Source of the DNA: Bacillota bacterium
Lineage (GTDB): Bacteria; Bacillota; UBA4882; JBLNCG01
NCBI GenBank assembly: GCA_050260475.1
Contig: JBLNCG010000061.1
Span: forward strand, 6,851-70,850
Reading direction: 5' to 3'
DNA length: 64,000 nucleotides
Below the pieces are notes generated by a model, which was given only the letters and a program-made list of their open reading frames with translations, was not told the origin of the DNA and made no database searches. Each line of letters opens with the position of its first letter. The stretch's first letter is position 1. Shown one piece after another: positions 14,605 to 24,002 of this stretch. The translations under genes were made by a program, and so were the position numbers.

Positions 14605-14850
14605 GTTACACCGCCTGTTCCGTATTCTATTCACAATTCAGAAAATAAGAGATACCTTAAGGCCGGCCTTCGCAAGAGACCTCCTTGCCCTGGGGCAAGG
14701 GGGGGCTCTTGCAACGCCAGACCCTCAAAAGCTATTTTTATCCTTTCGCTTGTCCCGGCAAACATACTCGGGTGGGTGGCTATTCCATCTTTTCCATACC
14801 GGCGCACAAAACCCTTCCGTGCATGATTAATTTACCCCAATCCGCCCGAT

Positions 14851-14881
14851 AATAAAAAAACGGGGCGATAAAATAAGCCCC
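14851..14881 (-). terminator. Rho-independent terminator-like hairpin (GGGGC-N10-GCCCC followed by T8) on the reverse strand, not attached to an annotated gene
   Basis: The + strand reads aataaaaaaaCGGGGCgataaaataaGCCCC. On the reverse strand this is a GC stem followed by a T-run. It lies in a ~600-bp apparently non-coding gap. Confidence 0.4.
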
Positions 14882-15069
14882 AAAACGGATAAAACGAGGC
14901 TTCCGTCATTTCATCCAAGCAAAACCGGCGATTGATTTTGCTGCATGAAAATCAAGGGGCGAAAGATAAGTTATTTTAAAAGGCGTCCGGGGTGCGGCTG
15001 GCATCAATCCTAAGCAAACAAAGAAGGTGTCGCATGAAAACTTTTTCATGGTGCCATATTTCTTATAAG

Positions 15070-15138
15070 AGGCAATTGCGTTGTTACCTTAATTCAGGGT
15101 CTTGCCACAAATGTAGTATATGGCTGCCATTAGGCTGC
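15070..15138 (-). repeat. Half copy (reverse orientation) of the palindromic intergenic repeat
   Basis: AGGCAATTGCGTTGTTACCTTAATTCAGGGTCTTGCCACAAATGTAGTATATGGCTGCCATTAGGCTGC. Confidence 0.75.
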
Positions 15139-15250
15139 AGGGGGAACCGAGCTTAAGATCTCATTAATACCTGGAAGAGGATTTTTCGGATATTATGCCA
15201 ATATTTAAAGAAGGACCTTCCTACCCCGATGAAACCAGAGGAGTGATCCC

Positions 15251-16438
15251 TTGCCTGGACTTTTCGAAAAAATCGCCTTATTGACGCGCCTGGAGGACGG
15301 ACCGGCGGCGGTGGAAAAAATCCTGCTTTCCGTGTACTTCGAAGAGGGGATATCCACGAAGGCTTTGGCCCAGAACGCCTTCCTGCCGCTTCCGGTGGTC
15401 GCCGCCGTCAAAAAAGAACTGGAAAAAACGGGTTTACTTGCGCAGGAGCACGGCAGCCGCTTGACTGAAGCCGGCCGTAAATTTACCGCGGAAACACTGG
15501 GTTACGCAGGACTGAACCGGATTCTCTACAAAACCTTGATGCGTTTGAATCTTTCGGTTTTCGACCCCGGAACAGTCTCCGGGGCGGATACAGTCCGACT
15601 CATTTTAGCGGATCGGCCCCGCGTGGATGTGACGCTGGACCAGTCAAAAGGCACGCCTTCCACAAGCATTAAACGGGCGTTGCTTTGTCTTCATCATTAC
15701 AGCCTGATCGGCAAGGAAATACTGTGCCTGGGGGATGACGACCTGGTCAGTGTGGCACTGGGGATTTTGCTTAAGGAGCTTTTCCCGGATAATAAGATAA
15801 AAACGCGCATTCATGTAATCGACATTGATCCGCGTTTCCTGGCATATATTGAAAAAACGGCGGGGGCGGAAAAGCTTCCCATCACCTGCCATGAACACGA
15901 TTTGCGGGAGCCGATTCCGGGAAATCTGCAGAACCGCTTTGATTGCTTTTTTACCGATCCTCCGTACACCATCCCTGGCCTGGATCTTTTTTTGACGCGC
16001 GGCGTATCCGCACTGAAGAAACAGACCGGCCTGACGGTTTTCCTTTCATTCGCACACAAGGCGCCGGGCTTCACCCTGAAAATGCATCAAGCGATTCTGG
16101 ACGCGGGATTCGCCGTCCATGAGATAATCCCGCGCTTCAATGAATATGAAGGCGCGGAAATAATCGGAAATACCGGACAGATGATCGTTCTTAAAACCGC
16201 CGGGCATACCGCTTCCCTTCCGGAGGGAAAATATACAGGCCCGCTTTATACTGGAGAATTGCGGAAAACCTTGCGCACCTACCAATGCACAACATGCGGC
16301 GCGCGGTACAAGGTCGGCATGGACTGCGACTTCAACACCGTCGAAGAGCTGAAGGAAAAAACCTGCCCGGCGTGCCGAGGTGCAACCTTCGAACTAATCC
16401 TGCGGGATATCATAAAACAGGAAGGCGGACGTATGTAA
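15251..16438 (+). CDS. Rossmann-fold transferase with GDDD in place of the SAM glycine loop and a DPPY motif (resembles DUF43/BpsA-type aminopropyltransferases); N-terminal wHTH-like domain and C-terminal CxxC...CxxC zinc ribbon
   Basis: Motifs in order are ILCLGDDDLVSVALG (motif I position), IHVIDID (acidic motif II), CHEHDLRE, and DCFFTDPPYT (motif IV). The C-terminus is CTTCGARYKVGMDCDFNTVEELKEKTCPACRG. TTG start with RBS GGAG. Confidence 0.55.
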   Translation: MPGLFEKIALLTRLEDGPAAVEKILLSVYFEEGISTKALAQNAFLPLPVVAAVKKELEKTGLLAQEHGSRLTEAGRKFTAETLGYAGLNRILYKTLMRLNLSVFDPGTVSGADTVRLILADRPRVDVTLDQSKGTPSTSIKRALLCLHHYSLIGKEILCLGDDDLVSVALGILLKELFPDNKIKTRIHVIDIDPRFLAYIEKTAGAEKLPITCHEHDLREPIPGNLQNRFDCFFTDPPYTIPGLDLFLTRGVSALKKQTGLTVFLSFAHKAPGFTLKMHQAILDAGFAVHEIIPRFNEYEGAEIIGNTGQMIVLKTAGHTASLPEGKYTGPLYTGELRKTLRTYQCTTCGARYKVGMDCDFNTVEELKEKTCPACRGATFELILRDIIKQEGGRM

Positions 16439-16439
16439 A

Positions 16440-16898
16440 ATGAAGATCCGTACCGTCAAACAAGAAGATTTTCCGGTACTTGCCGCCTATGAAATGGAAA
16501 TCGCGGAAATCTCCTTCGGGGATGAAGCCGTGACCGACCCGGATTTCCACCTCCGGAAGCTGGAAAAGGCGCTCCCTAAAGAAAAAAACGGCATGATGGT
16601 CCTGGAGGCTGACGGTAAGCCCGCAGGCTGGCTATGGATGACCCCCCGCACCAATTCCGTAAGTGGAGAAACATACGTGAATTTTAAGAGCTTTTATATA
16701 GAAGAAGGTTTGCGCGGCACTGAATGGCCGGAGAAACTGCTCAAGTCCGGCCTGGAGTATTGCCGGGCTGCGGGTGCGGAAAGGATTATCGGCAAGGTGC
16801 ATGTGAAAAATCTCCCCATGAGGGCGCTTTATAAAAAGTGCGGCTTTGAGCCGACCCATATGACCATGGAATTGGCTCTGCGCGGTAATAGAAAATGA
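16440..16898 (+). CDS. GNAT family N-acetyltransferase
   Basis: 152 aa with GNAT-like motifs (GKPAGWLWM..., RGTEWPEKLLKSGLEYCRAAGAERIIGKV). Its start overlaps the upstream stop (ATGTAAAATG), indicating translational coupling. Confidence 0.65.
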   Translation: MKIRTVKQEDFPVLAAYEMEIAEISFGDEAVTDPDFHLRKLEKALPKEKNGMMVLEADGKPAGWLWMTPRTNSVSGETYVNFKSFYIEEGLRGTEWPEKLLKSGLEYCRAAGAERIIGKVHVKNLPMRALYKKCGFEPTHMTMELALRGNRK

Positions 16899-17923
16899 AA
16901 ATTAAATGCCTCATCTGGGACCTCGACGGGACGCTTTGGGAGGGCGTTCTGAATGAAGGGGAAATCCATATCCGCCCGGGTGTTATGGAAGTCGTCGCAG
17001 AACTCGACCGGAGGGGGATCCTGCAGACAATCGCCAGCCACAACGATCCGGAACAGGCCGCCGTCAAGCTCAGGGAACTGGAACTCGACAAGTATTTTCT
17101 ACACCCCCAGTTCAATTGGGGCCCGAAGGCGGAAAGCATCCGCCGACTCGTTCGACGGTTCGGTTTCGCCTTGGAATCCATGGCTTTTATAGATGATGAT
17201 CCCTTCCAGCGTTTTGAGGCCGAAAGGTATTTCCCGGGGATGCATGTCTATCCCGCGGAAGAATATGAAGAAATCCTCTCCCGCCCGGAATTCCAACCGG
17301 ATGTTATTACCCGGGAAAGCGGTTTGCGGAGGCGGATGATGCTCGCCGAAGCGGAACGCGCAAAAGCGGGTGCAAGCTTCGCAGGCCCGCGCGAGGATTT
17401 CCTGAAATCATGCGAAATGAAACTTACGGTACGCCCCGGCGCAGGCCCGGATCTGGACCGCATATACGAACTCGCCGCCCGTACCACTCAGTTAAACAAC
17501 ATGCCGGGACTGGTCGATAAATCCATGGTGCAGGCATACCTGGACGGCCCCAAGCGCGCCATTTACGTGGCGGAACTTACGGATCGGTTCGGGAAATACG
17601 GGATAATCGGAGCGGCTTGCCTCGATATCGCCGAAAACGAGGCGGAAACGACCCTGTTTTGCATTTCCTGCCGGATTAAAGGCCGCGGCGTCGCTTATGT
17701 TTTTCTGGGGGAAACCCTCGGTTTGCTCGCGAAAAGACATCCCCGCCTTGAACGTATTCATTGCCGGTGCCGTTCGGACAATAGAAACCGGCCCGCCCTT
17801 CTCCTTTTGCAGATGATGGGGTTTAAACCCGGCGAAAAAACAACGGCCCATACTTGCTATGTATTGCCCCTGCCTGCATCATATGCAAGGCCGGCGTGGC
17901 TTGATGTGCGGATACGGGCTTAA
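16895..17923 (+). CDS. HAD-superfamily phosphatase, subfamily IIIC / FkbH-like domain protein
   Basis: HAD motifs are I WDLDGTLWEG, II IASHN, III WGPKAESI and IV AFIDDDPF. The C-terminal ~150 aa contain Cys residues (FCISCRIKG, HCRCRS) as in the FkbH acyl-loading domain. ATGA overlap with the GNAT gene. Confidence 0.7.
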   Translation: MKIKCLIWDLDGTLWEGVLNEGEIHIRPGVMEVVAELDRRGILQTIASHNDPEQAAVKLRELELDKYFLHPQFNWGPKAESIRRLVRRFGFALESMAFIDDDPFQRFEAERYFPGMHVYPAEEYEEILSRPEFQPDVITRESGLRRRMMLAEAERAKAGASFAGPREDFLKSCEMKLTVRPGAGPDLDRIYELAARTTQLNNMPGLVDKSMVQAYLDGPKRAIYVAELTDRFGKYGIIGAACLDIAENEAETTLFCISCRIKGRGVAYVFLGETLGLLAKRHPRLERIHCRCRSDNRNRPALLLLQMMGFKPGEKTTAHTCYVLPLPASYARPAWLDVRIRA

Positions 17924-17969
17924 TCAAGGCAAACATATATTATATGCGAAGAGATGATAAGGTGTGCAA

Positions 17970-18224
17970 ATGGACAAAACCGACCTGAAGCAGATCATCA
18001 ATGAATATCTCCGCGGCCTTCTCGGCGGACCGGACATTGGCGATAACCATCCCCTGCTGGGACCCGGCGGAATTTTGGATTCAGTAACCGCCGCCGCGCT
18101 CATCCACCGGTTGGAGGAGCGTTTTGGCATAAATCTGACCGACGACGATCTCGCCCTGGAATCTCTCGGAAGCATTAATAGCCTCGCGGAGCTGCTTTTA
18201 CGCTATACGGATCGGGAGGAATAA
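17970..18224 (+). CDS. Acyl carrier protein (phosphopantetheine-binding)
   Basis: 84-aa acidic protein with GGILDSVTAAALIHRLEERFGINL, the canonical G-x-DS-hydrophobic 4'-PP attachment motif. Confidence 0.75.
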   Translation: MDKTDLKQIINEYLRGLLGGPDIGDNHPLLGPGGILDSVTAAALIHRLEERFGINLTDDDLALESLGSINSLAELLLRYTDREE

Positions 18225-18227
18225 AAG

Positions 18228-19040
18228 TTGTTCGCCGACTTGCACATCCATACCAACGCTTCCGACGGAACCTGGGGCGTCCCGGAACTCCTGGAAAGCA
18301 TTAAAAAAAGCCTTATCGGGCTTTTTTCCGTCACGGATCACGATACGGTGGAAAATACCGGCGCCGCTGCCGCAGAAGCGGCGAAGAACGGCGTCTTTTA
18401 TCTTCCCGGGGTTGAAATCGCCTGCGCGTACCGGGAGAAAGAATATCATCTGGTCGCATACGGCATTGACGCGTCAAACCGGCAGCTTTCAGACCTTATG
18501 TCCCATAACAGGAACGTGAGGGAAGACTATAACACCAAAATCGTAAAATTTACGGAATCCCTCGATTCCAGGATCAGTTTGCGGCAATACCGGGAATATC
18601 GTCATGATCCCGGACGGGGCGGCTGGAAAGTCCTCAATTTCCTCCTGGATAAAGGGATCATCGGTGGCCTTCCGGAATATTTCACATTAGTCCAAAATCT
18701 GAAAGAGACCAAACTTTTCAAGGAACCCCAAACAGCCATCCGGATCATTAAGGCCGCCGGGGGTGTTCCCTTCCTCGCCCATCCGAACGCCAATTACAAT
18801 GGCGGGACCATGCCCGAAGAGGAGTTAATGAAATGGGCCGGCTTCGGCATCGACGGCGTCGAATGCTATTCCTCCTACAATGCCCCCGGTGATGAGCGTA
18901 TTTACCTCGATTTTTGCAGGCGGAACCACCTGCTGATATCAGGCGGTTCGGACTGCCACGGCTCATTTCTCCCGAAAAAACTGGGCGAACCCCCGATTAC
19001 TCTGGAGATGTTGAATTTGGGAAATTTGTTTCAAAAATGA
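18228..19040 (+). CDS. PHP-domain metal-dependent phosphoesterase
   Basis: FADLHIHTNASDGTWGVPELL..., VTDHDTV, LAHPN and GGSDCHG are the PHP family His/Asp motifs. TTG start 4 nt after the ACP stop, with RBS GGGAGG. Confidence 0.75.
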   Translation: MFADLHIHTNASDGTWGVPELLESIKKSLIGLFSVTDHDTVENTGAAAAEAAKNGVFYLPGVEIACAYREKEYHLVAYGIDASNRQLSDLMSHNRNVREDYNTKIVKFTESLDSRISLRQYREYRHDPGRGGWKVLNFLLDKGIIGGLPEYFTLVQNLKETKLFKEPQTAIRIIKAAGGVPFLAHPNANYNGGTMPEEELMKWAGFGIDGVECYSSYNAPGDERIYLDFCRRNHLLISGGSDCHGSFLPKKLGEPPITLEMLNLGNLFQK

Positions 19041-23009: not shown

Positions 23010-24002
23010 TTACCTCCATGCGGAAGGCCATAAAATCATCTCCTTATAACCCGCCTCAAATCCCAATTCCTCCAATACCCCCACCGCCGGAGCGGACAGC
23101 ACGGGCAGGCCGATGACGTGCCCGGCGCGGCCTATCCTTTGCAGCCCGCGGGAAATTTCCTTGGGCGATTCGATCTGCACCACCAGGTCGACAGAGCCGA
23201 TATCGATCCCCAATTCCAGGGACGCCGTAGCCACAATACATGGAATCCTGCCCGTTTTTAACATTACCTCCGCTTCCAGACGCACTTCCTTGGAAACGCT
23301 GCCATGATGAGTACGGGCGATCTCCCTGCCTGCCAGCTCATTGATTTCCGCCGTGATCGCTCCCCCGTTTATATGCTGCAGGCGCTCCAGCGAAAGAGAA
23401 AGATGAGCCCCTCTCTTGGTCGGGAGCATTGTATGTATCTCATCCACGATCACGAAACGCACTGTTTTTAAAATCCGCCGCGCCTGGGAGGAAAGGAGCA
23501 GAAAAAGCGATTCAGGCGTTGTGATCAAGATATGCGGGGGTATATGCGACATCCGCCGGCGTTCGGCGGAGGGCGTATCCCCGGTGCGCACCGCTGTGCG
23601 CAACTTGGGGAATCGATCTAATCCCGTCTCGGCGGCCTGTTTTTCCATGCCCTGCAAGGGGGTTTCCAGGTTAAGGCGGATATCGTTGTTTAAGGCTTTG
23701 AGCGGGGATATATAAAGCACGCTCACCCCTTCATCGATATTCATCCCGTTTTCCGCCGCCTTATAAAGCCAATCCAGACAGTGCAAAAAAGCCGCCAGAG
23801 TTTTCCCGGACCCCGTGGGAGCAAGGATAAGCGCATTTCTGCCGGCGGCAATCACCGGCCACCCTTTTTCCTGGGGCGGCGTCGGAGCGCCGTAGGTTTT
23901 TGCAAACCAGGCCGCTGCAACAGGATGGAAAGATGACAGGGCCGGATGGGACAATTTCAACACCTCGAAATTTTGTTTTATTTTTGGTATAATCGGTCGC
24001 AT
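23010..24002 (-). pseudogene. Truncated, internally deleted remnant of an Lhr-like superfamily-2 DEAD/DEAH helicase
   Basis: Motif [14 protein letters not shown], motif [12 protein letters not shown] and LSLSLERLQ are followed after only ~17 aa by the domain-2 blocks [38 protein letters not shown] and QRIGRAGH. Motif III and about half of RecA domain 2 are missing, and the ORF stops right after motif VI whereas Lhr proteins continue for >1000 aa. Confidence 0.5.

Follow-up and report, generated by a model that had tools for sequence, protein, structure and literature searches.

A BpsA-like aminopropyltransferase gene recurs with genes for a GNAT, an FkbH-type enzyme and an acyl carrier protein in Bacillota and high-GC soil bacteria

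The branched-chain polyamine synthase BpsA, or N4-bis(aminopropyl)spermidine synthase (EC 2.5.1.128), is described from Thermococcus kodakarensis and Thermus thermophilus (structures 5xnc and 6j27). BpsA and its products are treated as features of thermophiles, and BpsA-type aminopropyltransferases are currently taken as markers of thermophile-specific branched polyamines (PMC12979288). The formation of a glyceryl-loaded acyl carrier protein (ACP) by FkbH and OzmB is known from methoxymalonyl-ACP and tetronate ('glycerate utilisation') systems. Among small acyltransferases of the GNAT fold, SbzI of altemicidin biosynthesis and the N-acyl amino acid synthase FeeM have lost the Q/R-x-x-G-x-G/A loop (P-loop) that binds the pyrophosphate of coenzyme A (CoA), a loss typical of carrier-protein-dependent GNATs (SbzI structural study, PMC11685415). 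The polyamine N-acetyltransferases SpeG, PaiA and DpA use acetyl-CoA, keep the P-loop, serve homeostasis or detoxification and have no link to FkbH or ACP genes. Here we analyze a locus in which a BpsA-like gene is followed by genes for a GNAT, an FkbH-type enzyme, an ACP and a PHP-family phosphoesterase. It lies on a 64,000-nucleotide stretch of DNA from a Bacillota bacterium (assembly GCA_050260475.1, contig JBLNCG010000061.1, positions 6,851 to 70,850 of the forward strand), the whole of which is called the window below.

A previous annotation based on the nucleotide sequence alone (the original prediction) had proposed a cassette of five + strand genes, and all five open reading frames (ORFs) are present where it had placed them:

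15251-16438, + strand: gene 1, a BpsA-family (PF01861) aminopropyltransferase-like protein of 395 aa with an N-terminal winged helix-turn-helix (wHTH) domain, a Rossmann catalytic domain and a C-terminal zinc ribbon
16440-16898, + strand: gene 2, a small GNAT acyltransferase of 152 aa, from a rare dedicated subfamily
16895-17923, + strand: gene 3, an FkbH-type HAD-IIIC phosphatase/acyltransferase of 342 aa
17971-18224, + strand: gene 4, a dedicated ACP whose phosphopantetheine serine, within L-D-S, is codon 18081-18083
18228-19040, + strand: gene 5, a PHP-family metal phosphoesterase of 270 aa

Hidden Markov model (HMM) and profile searches bore out all five domain calls (BpsA_C, GNAT, FkbH, PP-binding and PHP). 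The arrangement of genes 1 to 4 is conserved far beyond chance: the order BpsA-like gene, GNAT, FkbH, ACP is intact in 18 of the 80 genome loci surveyed, and essentially all of the 58 metagenome loci recovered with the GNAT show it too. We propose, with a probability of about 45%, that genes 1 to 4 are one unit that couples polyamine-type aminopropylation to carrier-protein chemistry, with an N-glyceroyl polyamine as product. This proposal starts from observed domain identities, catalytic-motif conservation, co-conservation and gene fusions, from which we infer the substrates, the product and the order of the steps.

The genome survey covered the 80 loci with the best gene 1 homologues. Four loci beyond those with the intact order contain decayed GNAT and FkbH remnants (L030, L039, L077 and L080), and in 19 loci the ACP comes after FkbH or is part of the same protein. 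A gene for S-adenosylmethionine (AdoMet or SAM) decarboxylase lies directly after the BpsA-like gene in 16 other loci of the 80, and in Acetivibrio alkalicellulosi the cassette is followed by a spermidine synthase gene. Metagenome contigs were scanned with the GNAT alignment alone, which makes this test of linkage free of bias from the gene 1 query; the 58 loci obtained range from 25 to 76% in GC content. For the high-GC loci only tblastn and HMM results were used, since greedy ORF calling yields long spurious ORFs there. A BpsA-like gene was found directly upstream of the GNAT and on the same strand in 33 of 34 testable metagenome loci, FkbH directly downstream of the GNAT in 32 of 33, and an ACP after FkbH, or fused to it, in all 22 loci with room for one. 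Of the 17 GNAT-centred loci that have at least 2 kb on both sides, all but one (16) contain a homologue of AdoMet decarboxylase, and no homologue of SpeE was found in GNAT-centred loci.

Gene fusions join the same partners. BpsA_C is fused to AdoMet decarboxylase in three loci (L100, L104 and L115) and to the GNAT in five proteins, a single protein (P0250) combines GNAT, FkbH-type HAD and PP-binding domains, and three others (P0142, P0144 and P0152) fuse FkbH to the ACP. A gene for an Sfp-type phosphopantetheinyl transferase (PPTase) directly follows the ACP in L104 and is present elsewhere in L131. The original prediction would have been given up had the genes proved not to be co-conserved across genomes; co-conservation is strong for genes 1 to 4, and the fusions add to it.

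Sequence and fold place gene 1 in the BpsA family. The protein scores 154 bits against BpsA_C (cutoff, 27), and its matches in the PDB are 2qm3, a Pyrococcus protein, and the two branched-chain polyamine synthases 5xnc (T. kodakarensis, Tk-BpsA) and 6j27 (T. thermophilus, Tt-BpsA), with E-values of 1e-23 to 1e-26 for the single sequence and 1e-35 to 1e-37 for the family profile. The same three structures rank first (E ~1e-20) in a Foldseek search with the AlphaFold 2 (AF2) model of gene 1, which has a predicted local distance difference test (pLDDT) score of 87, and are followed by DnrK-type methyltransferases (1e-11). Gene 1 thus shares with BpsA its Pfam family and its combination of wHTH and Rossmann fold, at only ~25% identity. 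The family profile aligns gene 1 residues 1-300 with Tk-BpsA, and because the alignment begins at residue 1 the N-terminal winged-helix domain is ordinary BpsA architecture: the original prediction had recognized this domain and mistaken it for a flanking addition. Three features of gene 1 were located:

15731..15742, + strand: GDDD motif (G161-D164), matching Gly157-Asp160 of Tk-BpsA
15953..15967, + strand: TDPPY motif (T235-Y239), in which D236 aligns with the acceptor-site Asp225 of Tk-BpsA
16265..16414, + strand: zinc-ribbon-like C-terminal extension (approximately residues 339-388) with C346, C349, C372 and C375

We compared these features with the functional residues compiled in a 2026 review of BpsA (PMC12979288), according to which the GDDD motif of Tk-BpsA (Asp159/Asp160) positions the aminopropyl group of decarboxylated SAM (dcSAM). 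GDDD is invariant in an alignment of 25 sequences (A1), aligns to the GDDD of both Tk- and Tt-BpsA and is found in all high-GC homologues tested. TDPPY is likewise invariant in A1, with DPPY kept in 12 of 12 divergent homologues tested, and Y299, the equivalent of Tk-BpsA Tyr290, is invariant in the same alignment. The four ribbon cysteines are invariant in A1 and are kept in homologues encoded by DNA of 25-76% GC; the AF2 model builds the ribbon region as beta strands. The LGDDDL, TDPPY and paired C-terminal CxxC motifs named in the original prediction are therefore all present, with the cysteines spaced CxxC-x22-CxxC and not CxxC-x24-CxxC. Conservation of GDDD, of the TDPP aspartate and of the Tyr290 equivalent is shared with BpsA, and the adjacency or fusion of homologues to AdoMet decarboxylase suggests dcSAM as the donor.

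A search for gene 1 homologues returned 1543 matches, the best 120 of which are ~390 aa long and 47-54% identical to gene 1; a protein identical to gene 1 is recorded from a Bacillota metagenome-assembled genome. Where hosts are named, most belong to Paenibacillus, Brevibacillus, Clostridium, Tissierella or related genera, which are not thermophiles; in contrast to the described BpsA enzymes, the family is one of mesophilic Bacillota and high-GC soil bacteria. Cassette-linked genes are scattered over the tree of BpsA-like proteins and form no single clade, which indicates that there is probably one kind of catalyst in all contexts and that the cassette was repeatedly gained or lost. We had considered a separate cassette-type subfamily of BpsA, and this cannot be claimed since the tree shows no single clade and the decayed remnants point to repeated loss. 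In 16 loci of Clostridium, Tissierella and related genera (L004-L054, for example L010 8001-9600), a BpsA-like gene and an AdoMet decarboxylase gene form a two-gene unit with no cassette. Such units suggest an uncharacterised aminopropyltransferase route in mesophilic anaerobes.

Gene 2 scores 42.8 bits against Acetyltransf_1, and its AF2 model (pLDDT 92) matches GNAT structures at a TM-score of ~0.75. The closest PDB match by both TM-score and root-mean-square deviation (rmsd) is DpA, a 1,3-diaminopropane (polyamine) acetyltransferase, and PaiA is also among the structural matches. Gene 2 resembles SpeG, PaiA and DpA in fold and size, and in an acceptor that is likely a polyamine. It differs from them in its CoA-binding loop, which is degenerate:

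16713..16730, + strand: degenerate GNAT P-loop R92-G93-T94-E95-W96-P97, in place of Q/R-x-x-G-x-G/A (alignment A2)

Neither P-loop glycine is conserved across the subfamily in A2. Loss of the canonical loop in a small GNAT fold is a trait that gene 2 shares with SbzI and FeeM, as are its position beside the putative donor carrier protein, to which it is sometimes fused, and the amide that it is predicted to form on an amine. On the other hand, gene 2 has no detectable specific sequence relationship to either enzyme, and its predicted donor and acceptor are a glycerate-derived acyl group and a polyamine-type amine. The subfamily is tiny: a search of 5.8 billion proteins gave 16 related clusters, and a profile search of 1.84 billion representatives gave 36 at E<=1e-30. 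By analogy with the carrier-dependent GNATs, we propose that gene 2 may move an ACP-bound acyl group onto an amine.

The reading of genes 3 and 4 as an FkbH and its ACP was correct. Gene 3 scores 198.4 bits against FkbH (TIGR01686; cutoff, 146.65), with profile positions 3-320 of 323 covered and hence both the HAD and the C-terminal domains, and also matches HAD-IIIC (TIGR01681). In alignment A3, residues D9, D11, T13, S48, K78, D101 and C259 are invariant and D100 is nearly so. This alignment includes an FkbH of Actinoplanes (L088) from a hydroxymalonyl-ACP-type operon, in which genes for a 3-hydroxyacyl-CoA dehydrogenase (3HCDH), an ACP, an acyl-CoA dehydrogenase and FkbH make up the classical hydroxymalonyl-ACP set, and gene 3 keeps every residue shared with canonical FkbH. 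Cys259 lies in an invariant S-C-R motif:

17669..17671, + strand: Cys259 of the S-C-R motif, in the FkbH C-terminal domain

We take Cys259 to be the acyl-enzyme cysteine by analogy with OzmB-type FkbH enzymes. Gene 4 scores 35.4 bits against PP-binding. The score in excess of the curated cutoff, the conserved HAD motifs, the SCR cysteine, the stand-alone dedicated ACP adjoining FkbH and the existence of FkbH-ACP fusions are all in common with the FkbH/OzmB systems, and on the strength of this family membership gene 3 is predicted to load a glyceryl group from 1,3-bisphosphoglycerate onto the ACP (PMC7489565). Unlike in those systems, the ORFs of the window around the cassette include no FkbI/FkbK-type dehydrogenase, FkbG O-methyltransferase, FabH-like tetronate synthase or polyketide synthase (PKS), the absence of PKS, dehydrogenase and O-methyltransferase partners having already been pointed out by the original prediction. 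The partner that takes the acyl group here appears to be a GNAT, with an amine as its acceptor.

Gene 5 reaches 31.4 bits against the general PHP domain (cutoff, 26.4) and falls far below the cutoffs of two NCBIfam equivalogs, pAp phosphatase (98 bits versus a cutoff of 400) and RNase RNM (94 versus 375). Judged from its sequence, it resembles 3',5'-nucleoside-bisphosphate phosphatase and RNase AM, and its PDB relatives are 3e0f, 2yb1 and 7ug9 (E 1e-15 to 1e-20). No PHP homologue was found in ~150 related loci, the window being the only one among the loci compared to have a PHP gene, so gene 5 was dropped from the conserved set; the proposed five-gene set thus reduces to a conserved module of genes 1 to 4 with the PHP gene outside it. 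Gene 5 is probably co-transcribed with the cassette here and is a lineage-specific add-on. One possibility is that it removes the 3',5'-ADP formed on phosphopantetheinylation of the ACP, and it may also be unrelated to the pathway.

The five genes are closely packed. Gene 1 starts at a TTG seven bases 3' of a GAGGAG ribosome-binding site. The string ATGTAAAATG, taken by the original prediction for an overlap of genes 1 and 2, exists, yet there is one base between the TAA stop and the ATG start. For genes 2 and 3 the ATGA overlap was described correctly, as was the gap of 47 nt ahead of the ACP ATG; this ATG (17971) is the most likely start of gene 4, with GTG 17964 as an alternative. Gene 5 has a TTG start preceded by a GGGAGGA ribosome-binding site, and lies 3 nt past the ACP stop instead of the 4 nt previously given. 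A gene-free leader of ~420 nt (14831-15250) precedes gene 1; it bears no likeness to the leaders of other cassette loci, no convincing promoter was found in it, and Rfam searches gave nothing in the whole window nor, in a sensitive search, in this leader. Scanning the cassette for promoters and terminators gave 2 promoter-like sites against a mean of 5.0 in shuffled controls and 9 terminator-like sites against 6.6, and the scan was not used because the former are fewer than in the control and the latter about as many. Neighbouring genes, named by reading their translations, include GH3-like glycosidase, xylulokinase-like, xylose-isomerase-like and cell-wall-hydrolase-like genes, among others. 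Elsewhere in the window, a 330-aa ORF (23010-24002, - strand) resembles a strongly shortened Lhr/DEAD-box-type helicase: a single short protein combines a GSGKT Walker A region with a C-terminal helicase motif, and the gene may be a remnant.

Genes for further enzymes adjoin the cassette in other organisms. Two loci (L093 and L003) add a short-chain dehydrogenase/reductase (SDR) and a B12 radical-SAM enzyme to the core, which in L093 lie downstream of the cassette, and another (L098) adds three radical-SAM/SPASM genes. In L085 and L001, genes for an AMP-ligase, a peptidyl carrier protein (PCP), an aminotransferase (class-III in L085), a B12 radical-SAM enzyme, a carbamoyltransferase and a methyltransferase lie upstream of the cassette. 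The cassette of Paenibacillus apiarius, P. thiaminolyticus and related species follows a KS-AT-T-C-FkbH-like-T megasynthase. With these additions (radical-SAM enzymes, SDR, carbamoyl- and methyltransferases, PPTase, and PKS or nonribosomal peptide synthetase, NRPS), the four genes behave like the core of a family of small-molecule clusters. The set of B12 radical-SAM enzyme, methyltransferase and carbamoyltransferase is also found beside ACP and FkbH alone (L087 and L089), which fits an action on ACP-bound glyceryl.

Several of these loci present features of their own. The PKS/NRPS cluster directly upstream of the cassette in P. apiarius (L083 1-15791), and likewise in L051, L058, L065 and L069, is accompanied by a DMFA2_C-domain protein and an alkaline phosphatase, which come next. 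In L115 (3756-14432) an IS110-family transposase interrupts the cassette, whose neighbours, two DegT/DnrJ/EryC1 aminotransferases, a GFO/IDH/MocA oxidoreductase and a ROK kinase, recall aminosugar or aminocyclitol pathways. Two high-GC soil loci (L136 and L139; e.g. L139 4446-5321, - strand) carry a gene for a SAM hydroxide adenosyltransferase (DUF62, SalL/FlA-like) near the cassette. In L087 (7449-14059) and L089 (2271-8899), the recurring genes are those for ACP, FkbH, B12 radical-SAM enzyme, methyltransferase, carbamoyltransferase and an NAD-dependent reductase/epimerase, a set that looks like another uncharacterised glyceryl-ACP-based pathway.

In the pathway that we propose for genes 1 to 4, 1,3-bisphosphoglycerate would be dephosphorylated by FkbH and its glyceryl group passed via Cys259 to the phosphopantetheine arm of the dedicated ACP. 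The BpsA-like enzyme would add a 3-aminopropyl group from dcSAM to an amine, with dcSAM provided by the adjacent or fused AdoMet decarboxylase in most relatives and, in the present case, presumably from elsewhere in the genome. The GNAT would then, or beforehand, as aminopropylation and acylation could occur in either order, transfer the glycerate-derived acyl group from the ACP, and not from CoA, onto a nitrogen of the same amine to give an N-glyceroyl (hydroxyacyl) polyamine. A glyceryl- or acyl-polyamine had been among the products suggested by the original prediction, and such a compound would be the product in our best model too.

Several observations weigh against this proposal. Most BpsA-like genes of Bacillota occur without the cassette, and a few loci (L081/L092, L091 and L111) have GNAT, FkbH and ACP genes with no adjacent BpsA-like gene; in one of these genomes, a BpsA-like gene lies on another contig (L073). 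Within the window, tblastn found neither a gene for AdoMet decarboxylase, which is the most frequently conserved companion of the module, nor a spermidine synthase gene, and a PPTase gene is likewise absent from it. The fold search with the GNAT model returned generic GNAT matches, which discriminate neither an acyl-ACP from an acetyl-CoA donor nor one acceptor from another, and the searchable literature yielded no N-glyceroyl polyamine. The remaining points concern the acceptor site of gene 1. In Tk-BpsA, Glu259 activates the acceptor, and the flexible acidic cluster Glu339-Glu345 at the C-terminus carries the aminopropyl group (PMC12979288). In HMM alignments, on which this comparison is based, gene 1 has no counterpart of Glu259: the Tk residue is an insertion after the positions aligned to H269-K270, the Tt glutamate aligns to A271 (Ser in most relatives), and the nearby D273 position is variable, being Gly in the window. 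Reading H269-K270 as a charge reversal of Glu259 was dropped, since Tk-BpsA has Arg-Arg at those positions with the Glu as an extra residue after them, and the claim was cut accordingly to the lack of a Glu259 equivalent. The acidic C-terminal lid of the solved BpsA structures is absent as well, the alignment ending near residue 300 with the invariant CxxC...CxxC ribbon in its place. Homologues encoded by DNA of 25-76% GC share this pattern, both in the residues kept and in those lacking. Lack of both elements means that the acceptor of gene 1, and even its mechanism, may differ from those of characterised BpsA, and coupling of gene 1 to a GNAT, an FkbH and an ACP sets it further apart; its product need not be a branched polyamine.

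This altered periphery leaves room for a different use of the same four proteins, in which the acceptor of the BpsA-like enzyme is bound to a carrier protein or unusual in some other way, or the target of N-acylation by the GNAT is the aminopropyl amine of dcSAM or of an enzyme-bound aminopropyl intermediate, so that a glyceroyl-aminopropyl unit is built and then transferred, in a manner comparable to LuxI-type acyl-ACP/SAM chemistry. Replacement of the polyamine-handling residues of Tk-BpsA by a zinc ribbon is compatible with such a scheme, as is the very close coupling of steps implied by the BpsA_C-GNAT and GNAT-FkbH-ACP fusions. Genes for polyamine precursors are also mostly absent from the clusters, the exceptions being one SpeE (L002) and the class-III aminotransferase of L085. 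Nevertheless, gene 1 retains the equivalents of the TDPP aspartate and Tyr290, which bind the acceptor amine in BpsA, many family members are accompanied by AdoMet decarboxylase only, as in ordinary polyamine synthesis, and the scheme is pure inference, with no precedent for aminopropyl transfer onto carrier-bound substrates; we judge it decidedly improbable. Another view of the cassette is that of a building-block or tailoring module that provides a polyamine tail and a glycerate-derived unit for larger products, such as PKS/NRPS, radical-SAM-modified or aminosugar compounds, the copy in the window being a remnant or having its partners elsewhere in the genome. It holds in some genomes, to judge by the megasynthases of P. 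apiarius, P. thiaminolyticus and relatives and the biosynthetic neighbours in L085, L001, L093 and L115. It is not evident in the window, where the cassette lies among genes for sugar utilisation and housekeeping. The P. elgii/P. tyrfis group likewise has no biosynthetic genes on either side of the cassette, and most metagenome loci conserve the core by itself. A remnant is also hard to reconcile with four intact ORFs whose catalytic residues are invariant, and we consider this view unlikely on the whole.

Could the cassette instead bring together two unrelated functions, that is, polyamine synthesis with an acetyl-CoA-dependent N-acetyltransferase for SpeG/PaiA-like homeostasis and an independent FkbH-ACP pair that serves a different pathway? 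The GNATs that acetylate polyamines are of like size, with DpA and PaiA among the structural matches of gene 2, and BpsA-like genes often do occur without the cassette. Mere juxtaposition nonetheless accounts poorly for a GNAT subfamily that is essentially confined to the slot between BpsA-like and FkbH genes, that lacks the CoA-binding P-loop and that is found fused to FkbH-ACP (P0250) and to BpsA_C (the five proteins mentioned above), and we give this explanation very little weight. The idea that gene 1 encodes a SAM-dependent methyltransferase goes back to older annotations, such as the JGI label 'predicted methyltransferase', and draws on the Rossmann fold and on the DnrK-type O-methyltransferases that make up the second tier of fold matches. 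It is scarcely credible given that GDDD replaces the glycine-rich SAM loop, that BpsA structures match better than methyltransferases by nine orders of magnitude in E-value and that homologues are adjacent or fused to AdoMet decarboxylase. The original prediction had read the motifs as pointing to an aminopropyltransferase rather than a methyltransferase, and would have fallen had gene 1 aligned as an ordinary GxGxG methyltransferase. Gene 1 is not such an enzyme, as its BpsA_C match and its proximity to BpsA in sequence and fold bear out.

Each of the proteins considered here falls in a known family, so what is new is not a kind of part but the combination, a small biosynthetic cassette; we found no description of BpsA-like, GNAT, FkbH and ACP genes together in the searchable literature. 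A tentative reading, possible though somewhat short of probable, is that the cassette specifies a widespread undescribed pathway whose products, polyamine conjugates of a new class, join an aminopropylated amine to a glycerate-derived acyl group borne by a dedicated carrier protein. The pathway would employ a BpsA-type enzyme with an altered acceptor site and a zinc-ribbon lid, and a second type of carrier-dependent GNAT. The hosts would be Bacillota from soil, gut and insect samples as well as high-GC soil bacteria. A more radical version, in which aminopropyl transfer takes place on a carrier-bound or N-acylated intermediate, may apply and would, if true, be new enzymology. Whereas BpsA-type enzymes have served as markers of thermophile products, our data reveal that the family has a large mesophilic branch in which the periphery of the active site is altered; some members of this branch are tied by gene order and gene fusions to a glycerate-loading carrier system. 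If the predicted product exists, it would represent a new type of polyamine derivative in bacterial metabolism, including that of gut and soil organisms, would extend the role of FkbH beyond polyketide extender-unit and tetronate pathways, and would provide another example of the rare carrier-protein-dependent GNATs. More elaborate clusters built around this module of four small genes occur as well, and these could be mined for new compounds.

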